Shown piece by piece: positions 8,611-64,000 of a DNA stretch of 64,000 bases. Each line of letters begins with the position of its first letter. The first letter of the stretch is position 1. The notes beneath the pieces are model-generated. The model was not told the DNA's origin, searched no databases, and was given only the letters and a program-made list of their open reading frames with translations. The DNA is from Squalus acanthias (lineage: Eukaryota), in assembly GCA_030390025.1 (NCBI GenBank), contig JASTWF010000098.1, positions 620,001 through 684,000 of the forward strand, in the 5' to 3' direction. The translations under genes were made by a program, and so were the position numbers.

Positions 8611-11100
8611 TGCTGCCTGCATGCCTCAATTGTAGAAGAGTAGTAATAATGGGGGACTTCAACTATCCTAATATAGACTGGGATCGTAATAGTGTTGAGG
8701 GCAGAGAAGGGGAAGAATTTCTGAAGTGTGTTCAGGAGAACTTTCTTGATCAGTATGTTTCCGGCTTGACGAGGGAGGAGGCATTGCTGGATCTGGTTCT
8801 GGGGAATGAGGTGGGTCAAGTGGAGCAAGTGTCAGCAGGTGAACATTTAGGGAACAGTGATCACATTATCATAAGGTTTAGATTAGCTATGGAAAAGGAC
8901 AGGGAGCAATCTAGAGTAAACATGTTTAACTGGGGGAAGACTAATTTCAGTGGGATGAGAATGGATCTGGCCCGTGTAAACTGGAATCAAAGATTGGCAG
9001 GCAAAACTGTAATGGAACAATGGGCTGCCTTTAAAGAGGAAATAGTTCAGGTATATTCCCACTAGGGGTAAAGGCAGGGCAACTAAAGTCAGGGCTCCCT
9101 GGATGATGAAAGAGATAGAGAATATGATGAAGCAGAAAGAGCACGTATGACAGATGTCGGGTTGCAAATACATCTGAGAATCAGGCTAAATATAGAAAGG
9201 TCAGGAGAAGTGAAAAAGAAAATAAGAGGGGAAAAGAGCGGGTATGAGAATAGAATGGCAGCCAACAAAAAAGGTCATCCAAAAGTCTTCTATAGGAATA
9301 TAAATAGTAAAAGGGTAGTAAGAGGAGAGGGGTGGGGCCGATTAGGGACCAAAACTGAGACTTATGCATGGAGGCAGAGGGTATGGCTGAGGTAATAAAT
9401 GAGCACTTTGCATCTGTCTTCACCAAGGAAGAAGATGCTGCTATAGACATAGTAAAGGAGGAGGTAGTGGAGATACTTGATACGATAAAAATTGATAGAG
9501 GAGGTATTAGAAAGGCTGGCTGTACTTAAAGTAGATAAGTCACCAGGAGCGGATGGGATGCATCCGAGGATGCTAAGGGAATTGAGGGAGAAATCGCGGA
9601 GGTACTAGCCAGAATATTCCAAACCTCCTTAGATACGGGGTGGTGCCAGAGGACGGGAGAATTGCAAATGTTACACCCTTGTTCAAAAAAGGGTGAAAAG
9701 ATAAACCCAGCAACTACAGGCCAGTCAGTTTGACCTCGGTAGTGGGGAAGCTTTTAGAAACAGTAATCCGGGACAAAATTAACAGTCACTTGGACAAGTG
9801 TGGATTAATTAAAGAAAGCCAGCACGGATTTGTTAAAGGCAAATCGTGTTTTACTAACTTGATTGAGTTCTTTGAGGTAACCGAGAGGGTTGATGAGGGT
9901 AATGCAGTTGATGTAGTGTGCATAGATTTCCAAAAGGCGTTCGACAAAGTGCCCACACAATAGGCTCGCCAGCAAAGTTGAAGCCCATGGAATAAAAGAG
10001 ATAGTGGCAGCATGGATACGGAATTGGCTAAGTGACAGGAAACAGAGTAATGGTGAACGGTTGTTTTTCAGACTGGAGGAAGGTATACAGTGGTGTTCCT
10101 TAGGGGTCGGTTCTAGGACCACTGCTTTTCTTGATGTATATTACTGACTTGGACGTGGGTGTACAGGGCACAATTTCAAAATTTGCAGATGACACAAAAC
10201 TTGGAAGTATAGTGAACCGTGAGGAGGAGAGTGATAGACTTCAAGAAGACATAGACAGGCTGGCGAAATGGGTGGACACGTGGCAGATTAAATTTAACCC
10301 AGAAAAGTGTGGTGATACATTTTGGTAGTAAGAATGAGGAGAGGACATATAAACTAAAGGGTACAATCCTGAAGGGAGTGCATGAACAGAGAGACCTGGG
10401 GATATGTGTGCACAAATTGTTGAAGGTGGCAGGGCAGGTTGAGAAAGCAGTTAAAAAGGCTTACGGGATCCTGGGCTTCATAAATAAAAATATAGAGTAC
10501 AAAAGTGTGGGAATTATGATGAACTTGTATAAAACACTGGTTCGGCCTCAACTGGAGTATTGTGTCCAATTCTGGGCACCACACTTTAGGAAGGATGTGA
10601 AGGCCTTAGGGTGCAGAAAATATTTACAAGAATGATTCCAGGAATGAGGGACTTCAGTTACGTTGATGGACTGGAGAAGCTGGGGTTGTTCTCCTTGGAG
10701 CAGAGAAGATTGAGAGGAGATTTGATAGGTGTTCAAAATCATGAGGGGACTGGACAGAGTAGATAGAGAGAAACTGTTCCCATTGGCAGAAGGGACGAGA
10801 ACCAGAGGACACAGATTTAAGGTGATGATTGGCAAAAGAACCAATGGCGACGTAAGAAAAAACTTTTTTATGCAGCGAGTGGTTAAGATCTGGAATACAC
10901 TGCCTGAAAGGGTGGTGGAGGCAGACTCAATCACAGCTTTTAAAGGGGAGTTGGATAAGTATCTGAAGGAGGAAATTTGCAGGGCTACGGGGAAAAGGGC
11001 GGGTGAGTGGGACTAGCTGCAGTGCTCTTGCAGAGAGCCAGCATGGGCTCAACGGGCCGAATGGCCGCCTTCCGTGCTGTAACCATTCTATGATTCTATG
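8611..11100 (+). mobile_element. CR1 LINE, 5'-truncated ORF2 (APE end and RT), frameshifted
   Basis: MGDFN, LDLVL, SDH, QHGF, DFQKAFD, FADD motifs; (ATTCTATG)2 tail. Confidence 0.95.
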
Positions 11101-11521
11101 AATTGCCAATGCTGTCCTTTGGACTTCATTTCTACTGTAATTGGCCCTTTGTTTGGTGCTGTGGGACTCCAGATGGATCTTTATGAATGAGCAACCACCT
11201 CTGTTGGGATTTGTGCCTGAATTTGGCACGAATGTATTGTGAAGACAATCAGATTTCCTTGTGTGTGTTTCCCAATATGTTTTTTACTACCTGCATTGGG
11301 CTCCATTGTGCGTGCAAAACAATTTGAGCAGCAGTGCAGGTGTTTCATAGGTTTCGTGCTGCAAGTGGGGTCCTCTCAGTAATCTGAGTTCATGTTTATA
11401 CATCCATTTACTGACTGGAGCCAGTGCAAGCAAGGCATTGTCGGGAGATTCAGTTGGGTTCAGTGTGCTGCGCACTTTGTTGTGTAATCAAATCAGATTT
11501 AGTTTGTTAGAATAAAATAAT

Positions 11522-13012: not shown

Positions 13013-13111
13013 AGTACTGTGGAACCTTTTGCTACCCCAACGTTGCACACTCCCCATACCTTCGGACTGTTGGAGAAAAGCTACTCCCTGGCATTGATGT
13101 ATTGTGGACAG
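13013..13111 (+). CDS. OGA: OGA exon 6 ([34 protein letters not shown])
   Basis: ttgttcag|AGTAC...ACAG|gtgagc; frame not shown in the ORF track. Confidence 0.96.
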
Positions 13112-14992
13112 GTGAGCTGTGCATTTTGGTTAGTTTGGCTTGCCAGGCCATTGTTGTTACTATGCTTATTTGTATTTGTATCTGCTGTAGAACAGTGTTT
13201 TTGAATATTCCTGTGTGGGTAATCCCTGCAAACATTGGCACATGTTCACAGACTTCTGAAATAATGATGTCAGCAACCCAAAGGAAAACTGTGCTATCAG
13301 CACAAACAGTGTCATTGTAATTATTGTCAAAGAAACATCCTGCTTGCAATGCTAATCTATTGCAATTGTCAACTAAAATCCACTTTTTGTGAACCCCAGT
13401 TGGAGAGCTAATATGTGGGGTGGGGAGAATTGCACTTAATCCAATATGCTTCTTTAATGTTAATTCATTACCTCAAATTTCTCCCAGCACCAATGACGTG
13501 CCTGTACCTACCAGTACTTCAGTATTACACAGCTCAAAGTGCTCTATCCAGACAACCCAAGTTTGGAAGCACAGAATCTAATGGTTTTGCTGGGGCAATT
13601 GTTTCACGGCCACCGTTGCACTTCAGTGGAATCCAAGTGGAAACAGTGTGTGGACTGTAAATTGTATCCTTGCGATAGTAATGAATGTTGGTGCATCGTG
13701 CCAACTGGTTTGGTAGCGTCCGTCCATAATTTTGACTTTTCAAGAAAATCCCGCTGAAAATATTTTCCCCAACACAAAATCTTCCTGCTGGATCACTCAG
13801 TCCTGTTATACCGACTGTTTGCATTAAACAGTGGGTGGGGTCGGCAGTTGAAATGCATGACCAAACTTAACAAAAAATAAAGTAACGGCTACCTACAAAG
13901 ATTGGGAAGTGGGAAGCAGGTGCAAATCTGAGATTGATCTCAAAACTACACGGTTCTTGATGTTAGAGGTTTCGTTTAACTGCAGCTTGCGTTTAAATAG
14001 AGCCTTTTAATGTAAAGAAAGTCCTAGGGTGCAACAGTTGGTATTGAAGCTATGCAGCTATAACTTGTGGGGGGGGGGGGGGATTTCTGATATTTGTTGA
14101 ATGTTACGCAGATGAAGTGTACTCTTTTCAGATGCAGTTGCTGGGTTCAGCTGCAAAGTGAGTTTCTGTTTTTAAAAAAAAAAGCCTTGACTTTGCATTG
14201 TGAACTTATGGTCATGTCCACTCTAAACTACAGCTGTCTAAATCTATCCAATCCCAAATGTAATATCGCCACTACTTAGTCCAAAATTGTTTTTGTTTTC
14301 AGAGGGTGTATCCTCCCTCAAGTTGGGCGATAAGAACTTGCAGTTTAGTTAATTAGAGCAGGGAAAGTTAAGGGAGAAATTTAGTAGAAGCCTTAACTGA
14401 TAAGAGTACGACCAGGCAAATAATGCAAGATTTGCACTTGGTGAATTAGCAACAAGGGGGTTTACACCCAAGCTTAGTACTAGAAACATGGAAGGAATTT
14501 TTCCATGCAAAGGGCCGTTAAAATAATGGAATACATGATAAGTGGCATGGACCTATTGGGCCGAATGGCCTGTTTCTTTGCTGAGCCAGAGTCGAGCAGG
14601 AAATTTTGAGAGGAATTGAGTACACACTTGAAGAATGATATTAAAGGCTATATGGAAAGAGTGGGGAAATGAGATTAGATGGGATTGCTCTGGGAAGAAA
14701 GTAGAACCTGCACGATGGGCTGTGAGGCTTCCTGTGTTGAAATTTCTAATGTTTAACATAACTGGGTACAGCTAAAACTTTTGCTGGAATTTTCTTTGTT
14801 ATGGGAGACAGTTCCATGGTACCTTGCCAAAATGGTGATCCAAACCATGCTCATTGACGGGAGTTGTTGGTCAGCACAGCCGAGCCTCATTCATTCCACA
14901 CAATACTTTCTGGTAAGGGTACAGCAGATAATCGGTGGTGGGATCTCTGGCTTTTACCCTCCTTAGCCTGGAGCAATGAAGCCAGTTTTATT

Positions 14993-16685
14993 GGTATTAA
15001 TCTTCCAGAATTCCCTAGATTCTAGAACAGTCTCCAAGGATTGGAAAGTAGCAAACATAAACCCGCTATTTAAGAAAGGAGGAAGAAAAAACGGGGAACT
15101 ATAGGCCAGTTAGCCTGACTTCAGTACTAGGCAAAATGCTAGAATCTATTATTAGGGATGTGGTAACAGGGCACTTAGAAAATTGTTATGTGATTAGGCA
15201 GCGTCAACATGGTTTTATGAAAGGGAAATCATGTTTGATAAATCTGTTAATTTTTTGAAGATGTAACTAGTGGAACCAGTGGATGTAGTATATTTTGATT
15301 TTCAAAAAGCATTCGATAAGGTGCCACACAAAAGGTTATTACACAAAATTGGAACCTATGGGATTGGGGGTAATATACTAGCATGGATCGAGGATTGGTT
15401 AATGGACAGAAAACAGAGAGTAGGAATAAACGGGACTTTTTCGGGTTGGCAGGCTGTAACTTGCGGGAACCGCAAGGATCAGTGCTCGGGCCTCAGCTAT
15501 TTACAATCTACATTAATGACTTAGATGAAGGGACGTATCCAAGTTTGCTGATATAAAGTTATGGGAAGGTAAACTGTGAGGAGGACGCAAAGAGGCTGCA
15601 GAGAGATATAGACAGGTTGACTGAGTAGGCAAGAGCATGGCAAATGGAATACAATGTGGGGAAGTGAGAAATTATCCACTTTGGTAGGTAAAACAAAAAA
15701 GCAGAATATTTTTTGAATGGCGAGAGACTGGGAAATGTCTGCATTCAGAAGGACCTGGGTGTCCTGGTACATGAATTACAGAAAGTTAACATTCAGGTAC
15801 AGCCAGCAATTAGGAAAGCAAATGGTATGTTAGCTTTTGTCACAAAGGGATTAGAGTACAAGAGTAAAGAAGTCTTACTACAATTATATAGGGCATTGGT
15901 GAGGCCACACCTGGAGTACTGTGTACAGTTCTGGTCTCTCTACCTAAGGAAAAAATGTGAAGTCGCACAACACCAGGTTATAGTCCAACAGTTTTATTTG
16001 AAATCACAAGCTTTCGGAGCGCTGCTCCTTCGTCAGGTGAAGTGAAGAAAAGGAGCAGAGCTCCGAAAGCTTGTGATTTCAAATAAAACTGTTGGACTAT
16101 AACCTGGTGTTGTGCGACTTCTCACATTTGTCCACCCCAGTCCAACACCGGCATCTCCACATCATACCTAAGGAAAGACATACTTGCCTTTAGAGGGAGT
16201 GCAACGAAGGTTCACTAGACTGGTTCCTGGGATGAGATGGTTGCCCTATGAGGAGATTGAGTAGACTAGGCCTATATTCCCTAGAATTTAGAAGAATGAG
16301 AGGTGATCTCATTGAAACATATAAAATTCTTAAGGCACTTGACAGGGTTAATGCTGTGAAAATGTTTCCCCTGGCTGGGGAATCTAGAACACGGGGTCAC
16401 AGTCTCAGAATAAGAGGTCGGCCATTTAGGACTGAGATGAGAAATTTCTTCACTGAGGGTTGTGAATTTTTGGAATTCTCTATCCCAGAGAGCTGTGGAT
16501 GCTCAGTTGTTGAGTATATTCAGAACAGAGGTCGATAAATTTTTGGGAACTAAGGGAATCAAGGGATATGGGGATAGTGCAGGAAAGTGGAGTTGAGGTA
16601 GAAGATCAGCCATGATCTTATTGAATGGCGGAGCAGGCTCGAGGGGCCGAATGGCCGACTCCTGCTCCTAATTCTTATGTTCTTT
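14993..16685 (+). mobile_element. CR1 LINE RT fragment interrupted by a Penelope mini-element
   Basis: DFQKAFDKVPH, RPHLEYC, RGDLIETYK; tail ttcttatgttct. Confidence 0.92.
15953..16164. mobile_element. Penelope-like inverted-pLTR mini-element with hammerhead ribozyme (intact on - strand)
   Basis: 12-bp TSD tacctaaggaaa (15941-15952, 16165-16176); long inverted repeat; - strand tcac-CTGACGA-a-ggagc/gctcc-GAAAG-CTT-gtga. Confidence 0.85.
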
Positions 16686-16891
16686 AGTTCCCCCGCTACT
16701 GCTTCAGCTGAGAATAGCTAACTCAGTTAGGATCAAATCGGGCTCTTTCTCGTCTGTTCCTTTAGTACCGCACCATGGGATCCATATGCTTACTGAGCCT
16801 TTGGGACATTGTTGTAATGGAATAAATTAAAAATTTCCTCAGACCCTGTAAATCGTGTGAAATTTACTGGTGAGAAACTAAACTTTTTAAT

Positions 16892-17804
16892 CTTGGAAGT
16901 ATAGTGAGCAGTGAGGAGGAGAGTGATGGACTTCAAGAAGACCTGGACAGGCTGGTGAAATGGGTGGACACGTGGCAGATGAAATTTAACGCAGAAAAGT
17001 GCAAAGTGATACATTTTGGTAGAAAGAATGAGGAGAGGCAATATAAACTAAAGGGTACAATTCTGAAGCAGGTGCATGAACAGAGAGACCTGGGGGTATA
17101 TGTGCACAAATCGTTGAAGGTGGCAGGGCAGGTTGAGAAAGCGGTTAAAAAAGCAAACGGGATCCTGGGCTTCATAAATAGAGGCATAGAGTACAAAAGC
17201 AAGGAAGTGATGATGAACCTTTATAAAACACTGGTTCGGCCTCAACTGGAGTATTGTGTCCAATTCTGGGTACCACACTTTAGGAAGGATCTGAAGGCCT
17301 TAGAGAGGGTGCAGAAAAGATTTACGCGAATGGTTCCTGGGATGAGGGACTTCAGTTACGTGGATAGACTGGAGAAGCTGGGGTTGTTCTCCTTAAAGCA
17401 GAGCAGGTTGAGAGGAGATTTAATAGAGGTGTTCAAAATCATGAGCGGTCTGGACAGAGTAGATAGAGAGAAACTGCTCCCATTGGCGGAAGGGTCGAGA
17501 ACCAGAGGAGACAGATTTAAGGTGATTGGCAGAAGAACCAAAGGCGACATGAGGAAAAACCTTTTTACGCAGCGAGTGGTTATGATCTGGAATGCACTGC
17601 CTGAAAGGGTGGTGGAGGCAGACTCGATCATGGCTTTCAAAAGGAAATTGGATAAGTACCTGAAGGATAAAGATTTGCAGGGCTTACGGGGAAAGGGCGG
17701 GGGAGTGGGATTAGCTGAAGTGCTCTTGCAGAGAGGCGGCACGGGCTCGACGGGCCAAAAAGCCGCCTCCTGTGCTGTAACCATTCTATGATTCTATGAT
17801 TCTA
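16892..17804 (+). mobile_element. Young CR1 LINE 3' fragment abutting the OGA exon 7 acceptor
   Basis: 295-aa ORF of CR1 RT C-terminus; tail ATTCTATG-ATTCTATG-ATTCTAG; same family as 8611-11100. Confidence 0.95.
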
Positions 17805-17805
17805 G

Positions 17806-18090
17806 GTCCAAAAGTAGTGTCCAAAGATATCTCTGTGGACTCCATTGAGGAAGTCACCAAATTACTGAAGAGGTCTCCTCTCATCTGGGACAATCTCCAT
17901 GCCAATGATTACGATCAGAAGCGTCTTTTCCTTGGACCATACAAGGGGCGGTCGACTGAGCTCATTCCGCGACTGAAAGGAGTACTGACAAACCCCAACT
18001 GTGAATTTGAAGGGAACTTTGTCGCCATTCACACACTGGCTACCTGGTACAAATCCAACATGAATGGTGTGAGGAAGGATGTTGTGATGA
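17806..18090 (+). CDS. OGA: OGA exon 7 (PKVVSKDI...[11 protein letters not shown]...VRKDVVM)
   Basis: attctag|GTCCAAAA...ATGA|gtgagt; WDN.HANDY motif; the acceptor directly abuts a LINE tail. Confidence 0.97.
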
Positions 18091-18983
18091 GTGAGTACAC
18101 TATGAAGCTCTGCTGCTGGGTATTTCTGAAGTGCTGCAGCTTATGCTTTGCATGCTTCATGAGGGAGGGTGTGCACTACTGTGCTATTGCAATTAAAACA
18201 TGTCCAAAGTCAGCTTCAGCTGCAAAGAGAGAGCCCTCTCATTCTGCATATAACTCTACCCAGTTATCCACCTCTTCTCCCACCTCAGCAAAACAAAATG
18301 TGGTGACTTAGACTAAATGCAGTTCCACAGCTGCTGTCAGTCCTCTCATACCTCACCTAGCTATCTGTTCTTTGTCTATTCCTAAACAGGAAATGGTGAC
18401 AGGTTTTCAACATGAGGGCATCACAGCTAAGCCCAGGCCTGCACCAACACAAACCTTCCAGAGAGTGAACAGGAATGGAAACTAGGTCGGATTTGTGCTC
18501 CTCTTTCTATTTCCCCCAAGGGACGGACTGTTGAAGATGGGTAGATAAGTGTAGCACCATTGCTGCTGCCCTCACCGAGATCCTCTAACTCCACCCAGAT
18601 CAGAAATTGAAGCTGGGACCTTGCTGCTCTTTACGGCCCAGTACCATGTTGAACAGTACGTTTTACCCATGTCAAAAGTGACAATACTGTATCAAGTGCA
18701 GTGTAATTGAACTGTCTGGCTAGTAAACAGTGTAGGTCCTGATCCCCATGGTGGCTTCTTTTCCTATTAACCTATTCAATCTTGTGTATCTATACTTAAC
18801 TCGCTGTACTGACCATTTCCCTGATGTGAGGGCAAGAGGGCAGTTGTCCCATCTTGTGTTCATGTTCTCTCCTGTGGCTGGAGTTTGGGGCCTGCCACAT
18901 CTGTTTGACTCATGTTCTGATTCCTTCACGCTCATGATTTTATTTTTGGTTGTACAGTAGCATTAACTCTTTATTTCCTCCAG

Positions 18984-19142
18984 CTGACACAGAAGAGAGC
19001 ACTGTATCTATCCAGATCAAACTCGAAAATGAAGGCAGTGATGAGGAGATAGAAACCGATGTCTTGTACAGCCCTCAGATGGCTTTGAAGATGGCTATAT
19101 CAGAATGGCTGCAGGAATTTGGAGTGCCACATCAGTACAACT
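18984..19142 (+). CDS. OGA: OGA exon 8 ([52 protein letters not shown])
   Basis: cctccag|CTGAC...AACT|gtaagt. Confidence 0.96.
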
Positions 19143-19973
19143 GTAAGTGTCCTGTGTTTAAGGATATTTTTTCCTCCCCGCCCTGAATAAGGTTTTCCCA
19201 CTGTTAATCCACCAAGATTTGCACCTCCTGTCAAGCAGAAGGATGGGCTACTCACTCCCAAACGTCTGACAGTACCTCCCTTTTTCTGCTTGCTTAGAAG
19301 CACAGTGCTGCCCAGGCAAGACTCTTCTTTCCCTCCCCACCCCTTCTGTAGGTCTTGCTATTTGCTTATCAGTTTGATTGGAGAGCGAGATAAAATCTCA
19401 CCTCTGCACATTAGCACTACTGGACTGATGCTTCAGTTTCCAGTTGGAGTGCGCTGTCATGAGTGCAGAGGGGGACCTGCATCCAAATTGAGCAATGTTA
19501 AAATAAGAGCAAGTATGAATACTGCTACAGAGTGATGCTCTTTGATGAATTGGGAACAAAGTAATGGCTGTAGTGATATTTGAGAGCTGAGCATGCAGTG
19601 AACTAGGAGATACTTGTAGTAGGGAAATGGGTTCCTTTGTACTGACAGATCTTGGAACGGCTGGATATTAATTACAGTGCTGTTCCATGACTAGTGAATA
19701 AAGGTACATGCCAGTGTCGGACCAAGACCAGAAGGTCCCATGGTCAATATTTGCCCTGCTACTGCCGCCCTGACTCAGATCATGTAACTCGGCACAGGTC
19801 AAGATTTGACCTTGAGACCGTCTAGGCCTTGTGGCTTGGTGCTGGCAAGGCTGTATCTTTATCCACTGAGCCATTGGCCAAGCTGCTTGCTAAATGTAGC
19901 TTTTTCCACTAATAGTTGATTAGTTCTAGTTTGCCGTGGTTTTTTTTTTTAAAGCATTGCTTTTTGTTCTCAG

Positions 19974-34600: not shown

Positions 34601-34752
34601 TCAAATGGAAAAACTCATTAACCAATAGAGCTTCTGTTGTCACATTTAATTATGAAGTTGCTAACTCAACCATGTCCATCTTTACACTTCTGGGATTCCT
34701 TTTTTGCTGACAATGCCATTGGAGCTTTTTTAAATATGCCCTTCTCTACTTA

Positions 34753-34973
34753 TGTGAGAAGTCGCACAACACCAGGTTATAGTCCAACAGCTTTATTTGA
34801 AATCACAAGCTTTCGGAGTGCTGCTCCTTCGTCAGGTGAAGTCTTCACCTGACGAAGGAGCAGCGCTCCGAAAGCTTGTGATTTCAAATAAAGCTGTTGG
34901 ACTATAACCTGGTGTTGTGCGACTTCTCACATTTGTCCACCCCAGTCCAACACCGGCATCTCCACATCATGGG
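34753..34973. mobile_element. Penelope-like inverted-pLTR mini-element, hammerhead motif on both strands
   Basis: 11-bp TSD ttctctactta (34742-34752, 34974-34984); 90-bp inverted arms with a 1-nt spacer. Confidence 0.88.
34845..34881 (+). ncRNA. Minimal type I hammerhead ribozyme motif (PLE-associated)
   Basis: Stem I tcac/gtga; CUGACGA; stem II ggagc/gctcc; GAAAG-CUU palindromic helix III. Confidence 0.75.
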
Positions 34974-55610: not shown

Positions 55611-55972
55611 TCACCAGTCCCTTTCTCGCGGCTCCCTGTACGGCAGCCCCAGATGCTCAAAGACAGCTCGCTCGGTTGGCGTGGAGACGGTTACCCCGGC
55701 GCTGACCTTCGTGCTCCCCTTCCTCAGGACGTGGCGGTTCAGCGAGTGCTCCGACAGGCTCATCCCCTTTGTCTTGGCCAAGGCCCGCATGGACCGGTTA
55801 AAGTGCGCCGATCCGGTGAAGTACATCAGCGCGCAGACAAACTCGCTGTACGGCACCACGATGACATCGAGCCGCCGGTAACGGTGCCCGGGACCCGGGA
55901 GACGGCAAACGCCCAGATACTTCTTCTGATTCCCGCTGTCCTCCTGACTGACCAAGTCGTCGGTGAGAAATC
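55611..55972 (-). CDS. POLL: DNA polymerase lambda, last coding exon (GFLTDDLVS...RRLDVI...[13 protein letters not shown]...REPRERDW*)
   Basis: Pol X palm/thumb motifs; acceptor gttgaaag|GA; TGA at 55611-55613. Confidence 0.97.
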
Positions 55973-56073
55973 CTTTCAACGGGAAATTCAGGAGTTAATA
56001 AACTTCCAAAAAATATTCTTTGGGTTTATGAAAGTGAGAGATCTCTCTTAGAGATTTTAAAATCTACTCCATA

Positions 56074-58318: not shown

Positions 58319-58880
58319 GGATAATCTGCTCCAACAATGTTTTTTAGTCCCAAATTCAGAAGTTCGCCAGGTATTGCACTAATTAGACACCAGCAGAACA
58401 CCCAGCGAATGAAGAGCTGTGCCCCACCCCTGGGACTCGTCACTGGCAAACCCAAGGCGCCTCTGATCATCCCCAATACACCAGGGCAGGCTCAAAGGGC
58501 CAAATAGTCTATTCCTGCTCCTATTTCTTATGTTCTTTCTTACGTACACCAGGGCGGGTAAAAGAAAAGAAAGACTTGCATTTCTCCAGCACCTTTCACA
58601 ACCTCAGGACAGCCCGAAGCGCTTTACAGCCAATGAAGTACTTTTTGAAGGGTAGCCTAAGAAACGCAGCAGCCAGTTTGCGCACAGCAAGCTCCAACAA
58701 GCAGCAATGTGATAATGACTAGATAATTTGATTTAGTGATGTTGATTGAGGGATAAATATTGGCCAAAACACCGGGGAGAACTCCCCTGCTCTTCTTCGA
58801 AATAGTGCCATGGGATCTTTTACGTCCGCCTGAGCGGGTAGACGGGGCCTCGGTTTAACGTCTCATCCGAAAGACGGCAC

Positions 58881-61759
58881 CTCCGACAGTGCAGCACTCC
58901 CTCAGTACTGCCCCTCCGACAGTACAGCACTCCCTCAGTACTGCCCCTCCGACAGTGCAGCGCTCCCTCAGTACTGCCCCTCCGACAGTGCAGCGCTCCC
59001 TCAGTACTGCCCCTCTGACAGTGCAGCGCTCCCTCAGTACTGCCCCTCCGACAGTGCAGCGCTCCCTCAGTACTGCCCCTCTGACAGTGCAGCGCTCCCT
59101 CAGTACTGCCCCTCCGACAGTGCGACGCTCCCTCAGTACTGCCCCTCCGACAGTGCAGCCCTCCCTCAGTACTGCCCCTCTGACAGTGCAGCGCTCCCTC
59201 AGTACTGCCCCTCTGACAGTGCAGCCCTCCCTCGGTACTGACCCTCCGACAGTGCAGCGCTCCCTCAGTACTGCCCCTCCGACAGTGCGACGCTCCCTCA
59301 GTAATGCCCCTCCGACAGTGCAGCGCTCCCTCAGTACAGGAAACTCTCGTTTAAACAGCACCAAATTATCCGGAATTCTCTAATAACCGGCAAAATTCAG
59401 GAGTAGGTTTTGAGGCTTCCGTATACTGTATATTTGTGGCTGTGTAACCGGGGTTCTCATACGTTTTGCCGTGTAACCATGGCTCCTGCACCTCTGGTTG
59501 TGTAACCGGGTCCCCTGAACCTGTGGCTGTGTAACCGGGGCTCCAGCACTTGTGGCTGTGGGAAGGGGCTCTTGTACCTTGGGCCATTGTCACTCCATGT
59601 TGCTTCGTTATCTGGAATTTTTAATCAACCGGCACCATCCCGGTCCCGTAGGTGCGGATACCAAAGAGTTTCCTGTACTGACCTTCCGACAGTGCAGCAC
59701 TCCCGCAGTACTGCCCCTCCGACAGTGCAGCACTCCCTCAGTACTGCCCCTCCGACAGTGCAGCACTCCCTCAGTACTGCCCCTCCGACAGTGCAGCACT
59801 CCCTCAGTACTGCCCCTCCGACAGTGCAGCACTCCCTCAGTACTGCCCCTCTGACAGTGCAGCACTCCCTCAGTACTGACCCTCCGACAGTGCAGCACTC
59901 CCTCAGTACTGACCCTCTGACAGTGCAGCGCTCCCTCAGTACTGCCCCTCCGACAGTACAGCACTCCCTCAGTACTGACCCTCTGACAGTGCAGCACTCC
60001 CTCAGTACTGCCACTCCGACAGTGCAGCGCTCCCTCAGTACTGCCCCTCCGACAGTGCGGCGCTCCCTCAGTACTGACCCTCTGACAGTGCAGCACTCCC
60101 TCAGTACTGACCCTCGGACAGTGCAGCACTCCCTCAGTACTGCCACTCCGACAGTGCAGCGCTCCCTCAGTACTGACCCTCTGACAGTGCAGCACTCCCT
60201 CAGTACTGACCCTCTGACAGTGCAGCACTCCCTCAGTACTGCCCCTCTGACAGTGCAGCACTCCCTCAGTACTGACCCTCCGACAGTGCAGCACTCCCTC
60301 AGTACTGACCCTCTGACAGTGCAGCGCTCCCTCAGTACTGCCCCTCCGACAGTACAGCACTCCCTCAGTACTGACCCTCTGACAGTGCAGCACTCCCTCA
60401 GTACTGCCACTCCGACAGTGCAGCGCTCCCTCAGTACTGCCCCTCCGACAGTGCGGCGCTCCCTCAGTACTGACCCTCTGACAGTGCAGCACTCCCTCAG
60501 TACTGACCCTCGGACAGTGCAGCACTCCCTCAGTACTGCCACTCCGACAGTGCAGCGCTCCCTCAGTACTGACCCTCTGACAGTGCAGCACTCCCTCAGT
60601 ACTGACCCTCTGACAGTGCAGCACTCCCTCAGTACTGCCCCTCCGACAGTGCAGCACTCCCTCAGTACTGACCCTCTGACAGTGCAGCACTCCCTCAGTA
60701 CTGACCCTCTGACAGTGCAGCACTCCCTCAGTACTGCCCCTCCGACAGTGCGGCGCTCCCTCAGTACTGACCCTCTGACAGTGCAGCACTCCCTCAGTAC
60801 TGACCCTCTGACAGTGCAGCACTCCCTCAGTACTGCCCCTCCGACAGTGCAGCGCTCCCTCAGTACTGACCCTCTGACAGTGCAGCACTCCCTCAGTACT
60901 GACCCTCTGACAGTGCAGCGCTCCCTCAGTACTGCCCCTCCGACAGTGCAGCGCTCCATCAGTACTGCCCCTCCGACAGTGCAGCGCTCCCTCAGTACTG
61001 ACCCTCTGACAGTGCAGCACTCCCTCAGTACTGCCCCTCCGACAGTGCAGCACTCCCTCAGTACTGACCCTCCGACAGTGCAGCGCTCCCTCAGTACTGC
61101 CCCTCCGACAGTGCAGCACTCCCTCAGTACTGCCCCTCCGACAGTGCAGCACTCCCTCAGTACTGCCGCTCCGACAGTGCAGCGCTCTCTCAGTACTGCC
61201 CCTCTGACAGTGCAGCGCTCCCTCAGTACTGCCCCTGTGACAGTGCAGCGCTCCCTCAGTACTGCCCCTCCGACAGTGCGGCGCTCCCTCAGTACTGCCC
61301 CTCCGACAGTGCAGCGCTCCCTCAGTACTGCCCCTCCGACAGTGCAGCACTCCCTCAGTACTGCCCCTCCGACAGTGCAGCACTCCCTCAGTACTGCCCC
61401 TCCGACAGTGCGGCGCTCCCTCAGTACTGCCCCTCCGACAGTGCAGCGCTCCCTCAGTACTGCCCCTCCGACAGTGCGGCGCTCCCTCAGTACTGCCCCT
61501 CCGACAGTGCAGCGCTCCCTCAGTACTGCCCCTCCGACAGTGCGGCGCTCCCTCAGTACTGCCCCTCCGACAGTGCAGCGCTCCCTCAGTACTGCCCCTC
61601 CGACAGTGCGGCGCTCCCTCAGTACTGCCCCTCCGACAGTGCAGCGCTCCCTCAGTACTGCCCCTCCGACAGTGCAGCGCTCCCTCAGTACTGCCCCTCC
61701 GACAGTGCAGCGCTCCCTCAGTACTGCCCCTCCGACAGTGCGGCGCTCCCTCAGTACTG
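58881..61759. repeat. 33-bp minisatellite, about 77 copies (14 + 63), split by a MITE
   Basis: Unit ccgacagtgcagc(a/g)ctccctcagtactg(c/a)ccct. Confidence 0.98.
59337..59675. mobile_element. Tc1/mariner-type MITE inserted in the 33-bp array
   Basis: TIRs CAGGAAACTCT / AGAGTTTCCTG; TA of cagTActg duplicated. Confidence 0.9.
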
Positions 61760-61950
61760 GCACTGGGAGTGTCGGCCTGGATTTTGTCTCTGGAGTGAGA
61801 CTTGAACCCACGACCTTCTGACTCAGAGGCGAGGGTGCTACCCACTGAGATCCTGCCCGGGGGCTCCGAGCTTCGCCTCCATCACGGGACTCTGCGCAGA
61901 CCAGCGCTCTGTCGCCTGTACCCGTTACCGCATCACCTCGCGACGCTCAC

Positions 61951-62745: not shown

Positions 62746-63337
62746 CTGAGACCGGCGCTCGCTCCCTCCGATCCCGGACAGGAGGCCCATTCCCTATTTA
62801 TGCTGCACAGTGAAGCGGGAACGACAGGCCCCACCCCCCTCCCCCGACGCACCGACATTCCTCAGGTTCGGCACTCCGTGGCCGGTGCGGCAGCTTCGAG
62901 CTGCTCGCTGTTCCCGTGACAACTGTCGGGGGCAGCTGTGCATGTGCGGGCATGCTCAGCAGGACCTGCCAATCACAGTTTGCCCCAGGGATCGGGGCGG
63001 GGAGGGGGAATCTGCAGTCCTGTGCATGTCTCTATTACACACCAGCTCTTAGCCGTGGGGACAGATTCCCTCATTGCTTCTTCTGCGCAAAATACTCCTG
63101 GGTCTCCCGACCAAGTTCAGTCGAAACCCTGGGATTTTGAGCCGTTTTGTTTTTCTCAGTGTCGCCTGTTCTGTAGCAGGGATTGGTTCATTTCCCGACA
63201 TTGCAACAGTGAGTACACTTCAACAACAACAAGTTGCATTTATATAGCACCTTTAACGTAGTAAAATGTCCCAAGGCGCTTCACAGGAGCGATTATCAGA
63301 CAAAATTTGACACCAAGCCACATAAGGAGATATTAGA

Positions 63338-64000
63338 AATAACAACAGAAAACGCTGGAAAAACTCAGCAGGCCAGGCAGCATCCGTGGAGAGAGAAAGA
63401 GAGTTGACGTTTCAGGTCGATGACCTTTCATCAGAACTGGGAAGAGCTGAAATCTCTTCCTATCTCGACTCTATTTTTTCTCCCCTTGTCCAGTCTCTTC
63501 CCACCTACATCCGCGACTCTTCCGATGCCCTCCGCCATTTTAACAGTTTCCAGTTTCCCGGCCCCAACCGTCTCCTCTTCACTATGGACGTACAATCCCT
63601 CTACACCTCCATTCCCCACCAAGATGGCCTGAGGGCGCTCCGCTTCTTCCTTGAACAGAGGCCCAACCAGTCCCCATCCACCACCACCCTCCTCCGCCTG
63701 GCTGAACTTGTTCTCACATTGAACAACTTCTCCTTTGACTCTACCCATTTCCTCCAAATTAAAGGTGTTGCTATGGGTACCCGCATGGGTCCTAGCTATG
63801 CCTGCCTTTTCGTGGGATATGTGGAACACTCTTTGTTCCAGTCCTACTCGGGTCCCCTCCCTCACCTCTTTTTCCGGTACATTGATGACTGTATCGGTGC
63901 CGTCTCCTGCTCTCGCCCTGAACTAGAACATTTCATTCACTATGCTTCCAATTTCCACCCTTCCCTCACCTTCACATGGTCCATCTCCGACTCTTCTCTT
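63338..64000 (+). mobile_element. Penelope-like retroelement: inverted pLTR, then RT ORF running off the window
   Basis: Open frame from 63452: ISSYLDSIFSPLVQSLPTYIRDS...TMDVQSLYTSI...KGVAMGTRMGPSYA...FRYIDD (63875-63889). Confidence 0.93.
63402..63438 (-). ncRNA. Minimal hammerhead ribozyme motif in an inverted Penelope pLTR
   Basis: agtt-CTGATGA-a-aggtc/gacct-GAAAC-GTC-aact. Confidence 0.72.

Follow-up and report, generated by a model that had tools for sequence, protein, structure and literature searches.

A CR1 LINE as the probable source of the branch point and pyrimidine tract of a catalytic-domain exon in shark O-GlcNAcase

Where does an old coding exon find its splice signals when a mobile element reaches right up to it? 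This question is raised by exon 7 of the O-GlcNAcase (OGA) gene of Squalus acanthias, where a sense-strand, 5'-truncated CR1 LINE (approximately 16889-17804) abuts the acceptor and ends one base short of the exon. The window analysed here is a stretch of 64,000 nucleotides (assembly GCA_030390025.1, contig JASTWF010000098.1, positions 620,001 to 684,000, forward strand), and all positions refer to it. The features of the locus are listed in Table 1.

The window contains exons 2-16 of the OGA gene on the plus strand, with exon 1 outside. Joined together, these exons form 851 codons with no internal stops, the NAGidase domain is present and the nearest proteins are named O-GlcNAcase, i.e. the gene is an O-GlcNAcase (GH84) orthologue with an intact frame. 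The product of exon 7 (PKVVSK...WDNLHANDY...KDVVM, Pfam: NAGidase) is equivalent to residues 252-345 of human OGA. Frame and translation agree with the original prediction that this exon of 285 nt can be skipped with the reading frame preserved, and that the WDNxHANDY segment is then lost. D285 would go with it; according to PMC7988489, D285A abolishes the activity of OGA and causes perinatal death in mice.

The original prediction also called the exon essential. The mouse data back its importance; however, the label is weakened by an intact-looking paralogue, and we use it with caution because genome G000 contains another gene resembling OGA in which both conserved motifs are kept. This second gene (C2:9278700-9324300, loci L066-L071) has 13 exon matches at 41-82% identity, retains FDDID and WDNLHANDY and has no stop within its exon matches.

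Table 1. Coordinates of the OGA exons, the CR1 element and the splice signals in the window.
Feature	Position	Strand	Remarks
OGA exon 6	13013..13111	+	99 nt; 3' end joined to exon 7 in transcript-like contig
OGA exon 7	17806..18090	+	285 nt; GH84 domain; WDNLHANDY with D285 equivalent; spliced in contigs X2 and X11
OGA exon 8	18984..19142	+	159 nt; join to exon 7 seen in X1, X2 and X11
Second copy, same CR1 family	10197..11101 (aligned part; extends further 5')	+	Intron 5; same tail; away from splice sites
CR1-type fragment, other family	14997..16690	+	Intron 6; separate from the acceptor element
Single-copy intron DNA 5' of CR1	16691..16888	+	Single copy in G000; runs on into the LINE in X13 record 16
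CR1, C-terminal part of ORF2, 5'-truncated	16889..17714	+	5' junction between 16888 and 16892
CR1 3' UTR with stem-loop	17715..17782	+	Last upstream AG ends at 17762
Branch point TGTAAC, predicted	17776..17781	+	Branch A17780 at -26; LINE-derived
Octamer tail, perfect (ATTCTATG x2 + ATTCTA)	17783..17804	+	22 bases, at the position of the pyrimidine tract
ATG in the tail	17796..17798	+	Intronic; shares the frame of exon 7; -3 is T, +4 is A
Acceptor AG	17804..17805	+	A fits tail and host alike; G not tail

Elsewhere in the window, the final coding exon of a gene of the DNA polymerase X family, which we take to be lambda-like, is found at 55614-55994 on the minus strand, convergent with OGA. A 33-base tandem array (58740-61800) has about 77 windows in register and several open frames, and a reverse-transcriptase fragment with YIDD and a weak RVT_1 match, presumably Penelope-like, is located at 63326-64000 (+).

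Intron 6 (13112-17805) is approximately 56% repeat. The element at its end closes with GCTGTAACC, two copies of ATTCTATG and ATTCTAG to 17805, followed by GTCCAAAA, as in the earlier description of a CR1 of about 0.9 kb running up to the AG of exon 7. It belongs to a high-copy, 5'-truncated interspersed repeat with the C-terminus of ORF2, a short 3' UTR and varying 5' ends. For its last 166 bases there are 2,709 genomic candidates, and the 40 that were scored match at 90-100%, the element itself included. A Pfam search of the CR1 fragment gave no match, and the RT core is missing from this copy. We assign the clade name provisionally, from the tail and from the likeness to CR1 ORF2 C-termini. 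The 3' end carries ATTCTRTG octamers rather than poly(A), the motif described for CR1 in PMC2612034.

The family stop TAG at 17712-17714 is out of frame in this copy due to a 1-nt insertion near 17684, and the frame continues to 17788. Selection on the frame of the LINE was considered and ruled out: it is intact in 4 of 21 copies, with 10 synonymous versus 26 non-synonymous changes. The ORF2 remnant looks as if it decays neutrally.

A copy near 11080 had been described as a sister with the same tail. The tail is identical, but the copy is not a close sister, since 812 of 901 aligned columns are identical (16889-17799 versus 10197-11101) and other genomic copies are 92-95% alike.

Two further observations concern mobile elements in or around CR1. 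An ORF2 break point (GGCA/TAG, equal to window position 17185) is shared by eight of the 59 fetched loci of the family (L008, L013, L021, L036, L038, L039, L043 and L045); in four of the eight the LINE restarts some 0.75-0.85 kb further upstream, and the intervening insert has GGG...CCC ends. Non-autonomous DNA transposons thus seem to have a second insertion hot spot here. An element of about 200 bases is present in two copies (15951-16163 and 34752-34945), with a hairpin of 80-90 bases that is 95-99% perfect, and the first copy sits within a CR1 between repeated TACCTAAGG. We take these to resemble Penelope-derived hairpin elements.

According to the original prediction, the LINE supplies the 3' splice site of exon 7. 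This holds for the zone of the branch point and the tract, which is LINE, but it is overstated for the AG itself. G17805 is the first base beyond the tail, and genome-wide the tail is followed by G at 102 sites and by C at 98, therefore G17805 is whichever host base stood there. Most simply, the AG is the old host acceptor, probably TAG or CTAG, with its A shared with the tail.

Could the junction be a product of misassembly, or a private allele that is rare? In favour of this, the contig that holds the window (C3861) is small and not one of the large scaffolds. However, DNA contigs from three runs and two related organisms (X12 from organism D, X13 and X14 from one sample of organism E) are unbroken over 17712-19300, with 52 differing letters in 1,579 (about 3.3%), and X13 also has a contig that spans the passage from the unique flank into the 5' end of the LINE (16690-16918). 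Neither the flank nor the exon has a second copy in G000. Since two organisms show the 3' junction and one of them also the 5' junction, misassembly, a concern of the original prediction, is largely refuted, and we give an artefact or a private allele practically no weight.

The same junction of tail and exon occurs in D and E, and therefore the insertion is old and shared: it is older than the split of about 3.3%, and is neither a private allele nor a misassembly. Nine letters are absent in the contigs of the relatives at an unplaced position; part of the LINE may be affected, possibly with one octamer among the missing letters, and a tail shorter by one octamer would bring the branch A to -18. 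The copy differs from the family majority by 4.7%, and the median of 31 copies is 4.4%; the majority was built from the 30 other copies, chosen as the best matches of this copy. At the 3' end, no other genomic match exceeds 94% among the 40 scored. The description of the CR1 as young is contradicted both by the sharing with two relatives and by this family-average divergence. Substitution rates in sharks are slow, and at such rates the insertion would be roughly tens of millions of years old.

Next to its age, the use of the acceptor matters. In the transcript-like contig X2 (2,276 nt), the final 30 letters from exon 6 (window 13080-13109) stand directly before 17804, and the contig joins exons 7-10 (18090>18984, 19142>19974) with one differing letter in 1,063. 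The match of the X11 contig begins at 17804, its preceding letters not being displayed, and joins exon 8. The X1 contig covers 17821-20590 with zero differences and does not extend back to the exon 6-7 junction. These runs are presumed, rather than recorded, to be RNA, and the GT..AG joints agree with this. In X2, exon 6 is thus joined to 17806, i.e. the acceptor is used in mRNA, in agreement with the original assignment. The runs are nearly identical to G000, even in two intron contigs (0 differences in 277 letters and in 267 letters, the latter from the run of X2). From this near-identity and from parsimony, as more distant relatives have the LINE, we infer that organisms A and B carry it, and its presence at the junction used in X2 is likewise indirect. 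The X9 and X10 contigs (organism C) covered just one 40-base repeat.

The X1 contig stops precisely where exon 9 does (20590), and X2 continues into exon 10. The stop of X1 may mark a branch, either another isoform or a retained intron.

A leaky acceptor would make the LINE an unproductive outlet of the gene, either through skipping of exon 7, which gives an in-frame but catalytically dead product, or through splicing to an AG (16903-16904) that follows the old tract. In the latter case exon 6 would be in frame with the CR1 frame up to a stop at 17789-17791, and the transcript would be a likely decay target. The sequence permits both outcomes, and the CR1 fragment is open over 305 codons without a stop. 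However, an open frame is ordinary in this family and its substitutions look neutral, as described above, and the cryptic AGs are preceded by 11-12 pyrimidines in 20, with purines immediately before them. The comparison of exon 6-7 and 6-8 junctions that had been proposed is answered by the contigs for the first, which is present; no 6>8 join, retention or LINE-exon contig was seen in X1 and X2, where contigs show presence only and drop rare forms. Nor do the spliced X2 and X11 contigs contain element sequence at the junction, as exonisation of the transposon would give, although rare forms are possible. Altogether, we consider a leaky acceptor unlikely.

Exon 7 is thus joined at 17806, and the element occupies the zone where its branch point and tract should be. 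As originally described, everything upstream of the AG is LINE for about 0.9 kb, and the distance from repeat to AG is 0; the other 14 OGA acceptors are at least 68 nt from a detected repeat when searched against the fetched loci. GTAAC with A17780 is the only T-N-A between -18 and -45 and thus the best candidate on the sequence, as first proposed. It does not have the pyrimidine at -3 of yUnAy. The acceptors of exons 3, 11, 14 and 15 show GTAAC, GTAAT or GTAAG at -23 to -28, resembling that of the LINE. According to PMC4315302, 90% of human branch points are located at -19 to -37, with a median of 25, and 77% of the stretches between branch point and acceptor are free of AG. Before exon 7 the AG-free zone is 41 nt.

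The tract of exon 7 was originally called weak. With 13 pyrimidines in 20 (-23..-4) it is ordinary, as the 15 acceptors of the gene span 12-18. The RNA fold of 17700-17830 (z -1.6) is uninformative. The ATG in the tail is present and in frame, as noted earlier, and there is no sign of its use; as a start codon it was rejected, given its poor context, its intronic position and zero supporting evidence.

The branch point and the pyrimidine tract of exon 7 most likely come from the 3' end of the LINE, the branch point being a predicted one, because the old flank is 0.9 kb away, behind 98 AGs. The displaced native site might instead still act as a distal branch point, with the LINE a mere spacer. 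Exceptional cases of distal branch points exist (PMC4315302), but here the same 98 AGs intervene over the 0.9 kb, and we regard this as very improbable. A distal branch point is expected to have an AG-free path to its acceptor.

How did signals of the LINE come to stand at this exon? We rather favour a direct insertion into the acceptor, in which both the microhomology and the displaced tract are deduced from the sequence. The CR1 would have entered the native acceptor, priming on a TCT- or TTCTA-like target; the old (C)TAG would have stayed in place, and the native branch point and tract would have been shifted about 0.9 kb upstream. The insertion may have been tolerated by virtue of what the CR1 end offers, i.e. 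a T-N-A, a run of 70% pyrimidines and 41 nt free of AG. Its spread through the lineage would have been complete before D and E split off, and what remains of the LINE decays neutrally. The 5' flank ends AATCT, which fits the TCT at the 3' junction and agrees with the TTCT preference of bird CR1; in a goose, TTCT is the preferred target and the octamer tail is described (PMC2612034). At the same exon in a non-shark vertebrate locus (L034), the intron ends TTAG with 16 pyrimidines in 20.

The same function could have another history. The LINE could have inserted upstream, or with loss of the target, and the original tract could have been lost in a deletion between the TTCTA of the tail and the native CTAG. 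In that case the AT-rich stretch (16874-16891), a candidate for the displaced branch point and tract, would be ordinary intron. The original prediction was correct that an AT/T-rich stretch is present 5' of the LINE, and the flank is single-copy, but its pyrimidine content (9-12 in 20) is at chance level, attained by 31-44% of the 20-mers of the gene region (4630-42000). This speaks for the deletion, as do the target-site duplications: in 37 two-ended copies of the family their lengths are 1-5, equal to those of shuffled pairs, and the TCT 'duplication' does not exceed these in length. From this count we left out 13 copies beyond the locus or reference, plus copies where the LINE resumes upstream. 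Against the deletion stands the fit of the AATCT flank end to the junction. In organism E, two extra letters within the T-run of the flank bring it to 12 in 20, equal to the weakest acceptors of the gene. Two events are also needed, and a single one is simpler. We consider this history possible, but doubtful compared with direct insertion.

No empty allele is present in G000, where the flank is single-copy and exon 7 has one paralogue only, or in the contigs of D and E, which carry the insert; a metagenome scan gave one non-shark locus.

Direct insertion into an acceptor can be compared with several known systems. In merle dogs, a SINEC_Cf lies at the boundary of PMEL intron 10 and exon 11 (PMC6091007). 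As at OGA, a retroposon at an intron-exon boundary gives pyrimidine-rich sequence and the original AG is still usable. However, merle involves an antisense SINE with oligo(dT), is polymorphic, has a competing acceptor and gives a phenotype, whereas the LINE at OGA is in sense orientation, has octamers as its tail and is common to three organisms, with no added exon sequence seen. Inverted Alus that become exonised bring along branch points and poly(U) tracts (PMC4315302). There too, a mobile element gives branch point and tract. In the cases described these serve new Alu-derived exons through antisense poly(A), while the exon served at OGA is an ancient coding one and the spliced contigs are without element sequence.

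In mammals, elements closer than 20 bp to exons are rare, rarer still at acceptors and often harmful (PMC3088655). The OGA insertion, with no distance at all to the acceptor, lies inside the depleted zone reported for mammals and has survived there as an exception; replacement of acceptor signals is not among the topics treated in the accessible part of that paper. Exonisation of CR1 and HE1 is known from chicken and zebrafish (PMC2911107). The CR1 of PMC2612034 and PMC2911107 is of the same element class and has the same type of tail (ATTCTRTG), which offers a route into a pyrimidine tract. The available parts of these two papers do not describe a tail that replaces the signals of an existing constitutive exon, and in the open-access literature we found no description of a CR1 tail that serves an existing coding exon. 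That mobile elements donate tracts and branch points is already known; the OGA case resembles these in the way it works, without being an exonisation.

Does the same happen at other exons? There are 102 exact copies of the tail followed by AG. We fetched 100 others, and 67 of these have an open frame of at least 25 codons past the AG (96 frames). A Pfam search of the 96 frames gave no family at the cut-off, in a test that overlooks exons that are short or match nothing in Pfam. One weak match (E 0.0023) is within a tandem repeat. At this low sensitivity, the 100 copies yielded no second case. Tentatively, the CR1 3' end might be a ready-made sense acceptor cassette that homes by microhomology and heals a broken splice site, so that many old exons depend on it, but this is rather doubtful at present. 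If it were true, constitutive coding exons in cartilaginous fishes would rely on LINE or SINE tails as a class, and the number of octamers would tune the distance to the branch point.

At the single locus, there is no change of the protein and no new mechanism. Insertions less than 20 bases from an acceptor are usually purged, and the known survivors mostly use antisense poly(A) or give rise to new exons. At OGA, the element is a LINE in sense orientation that lacks poly(A); it stands where an old catalytic exon has its splice signals, and it persists across species. The locus is a natural swap experiment: if the last 30 bases of the LINE proved to be constrained and lariat-bearing, the end of a mobile element would have become a needed splice signal.
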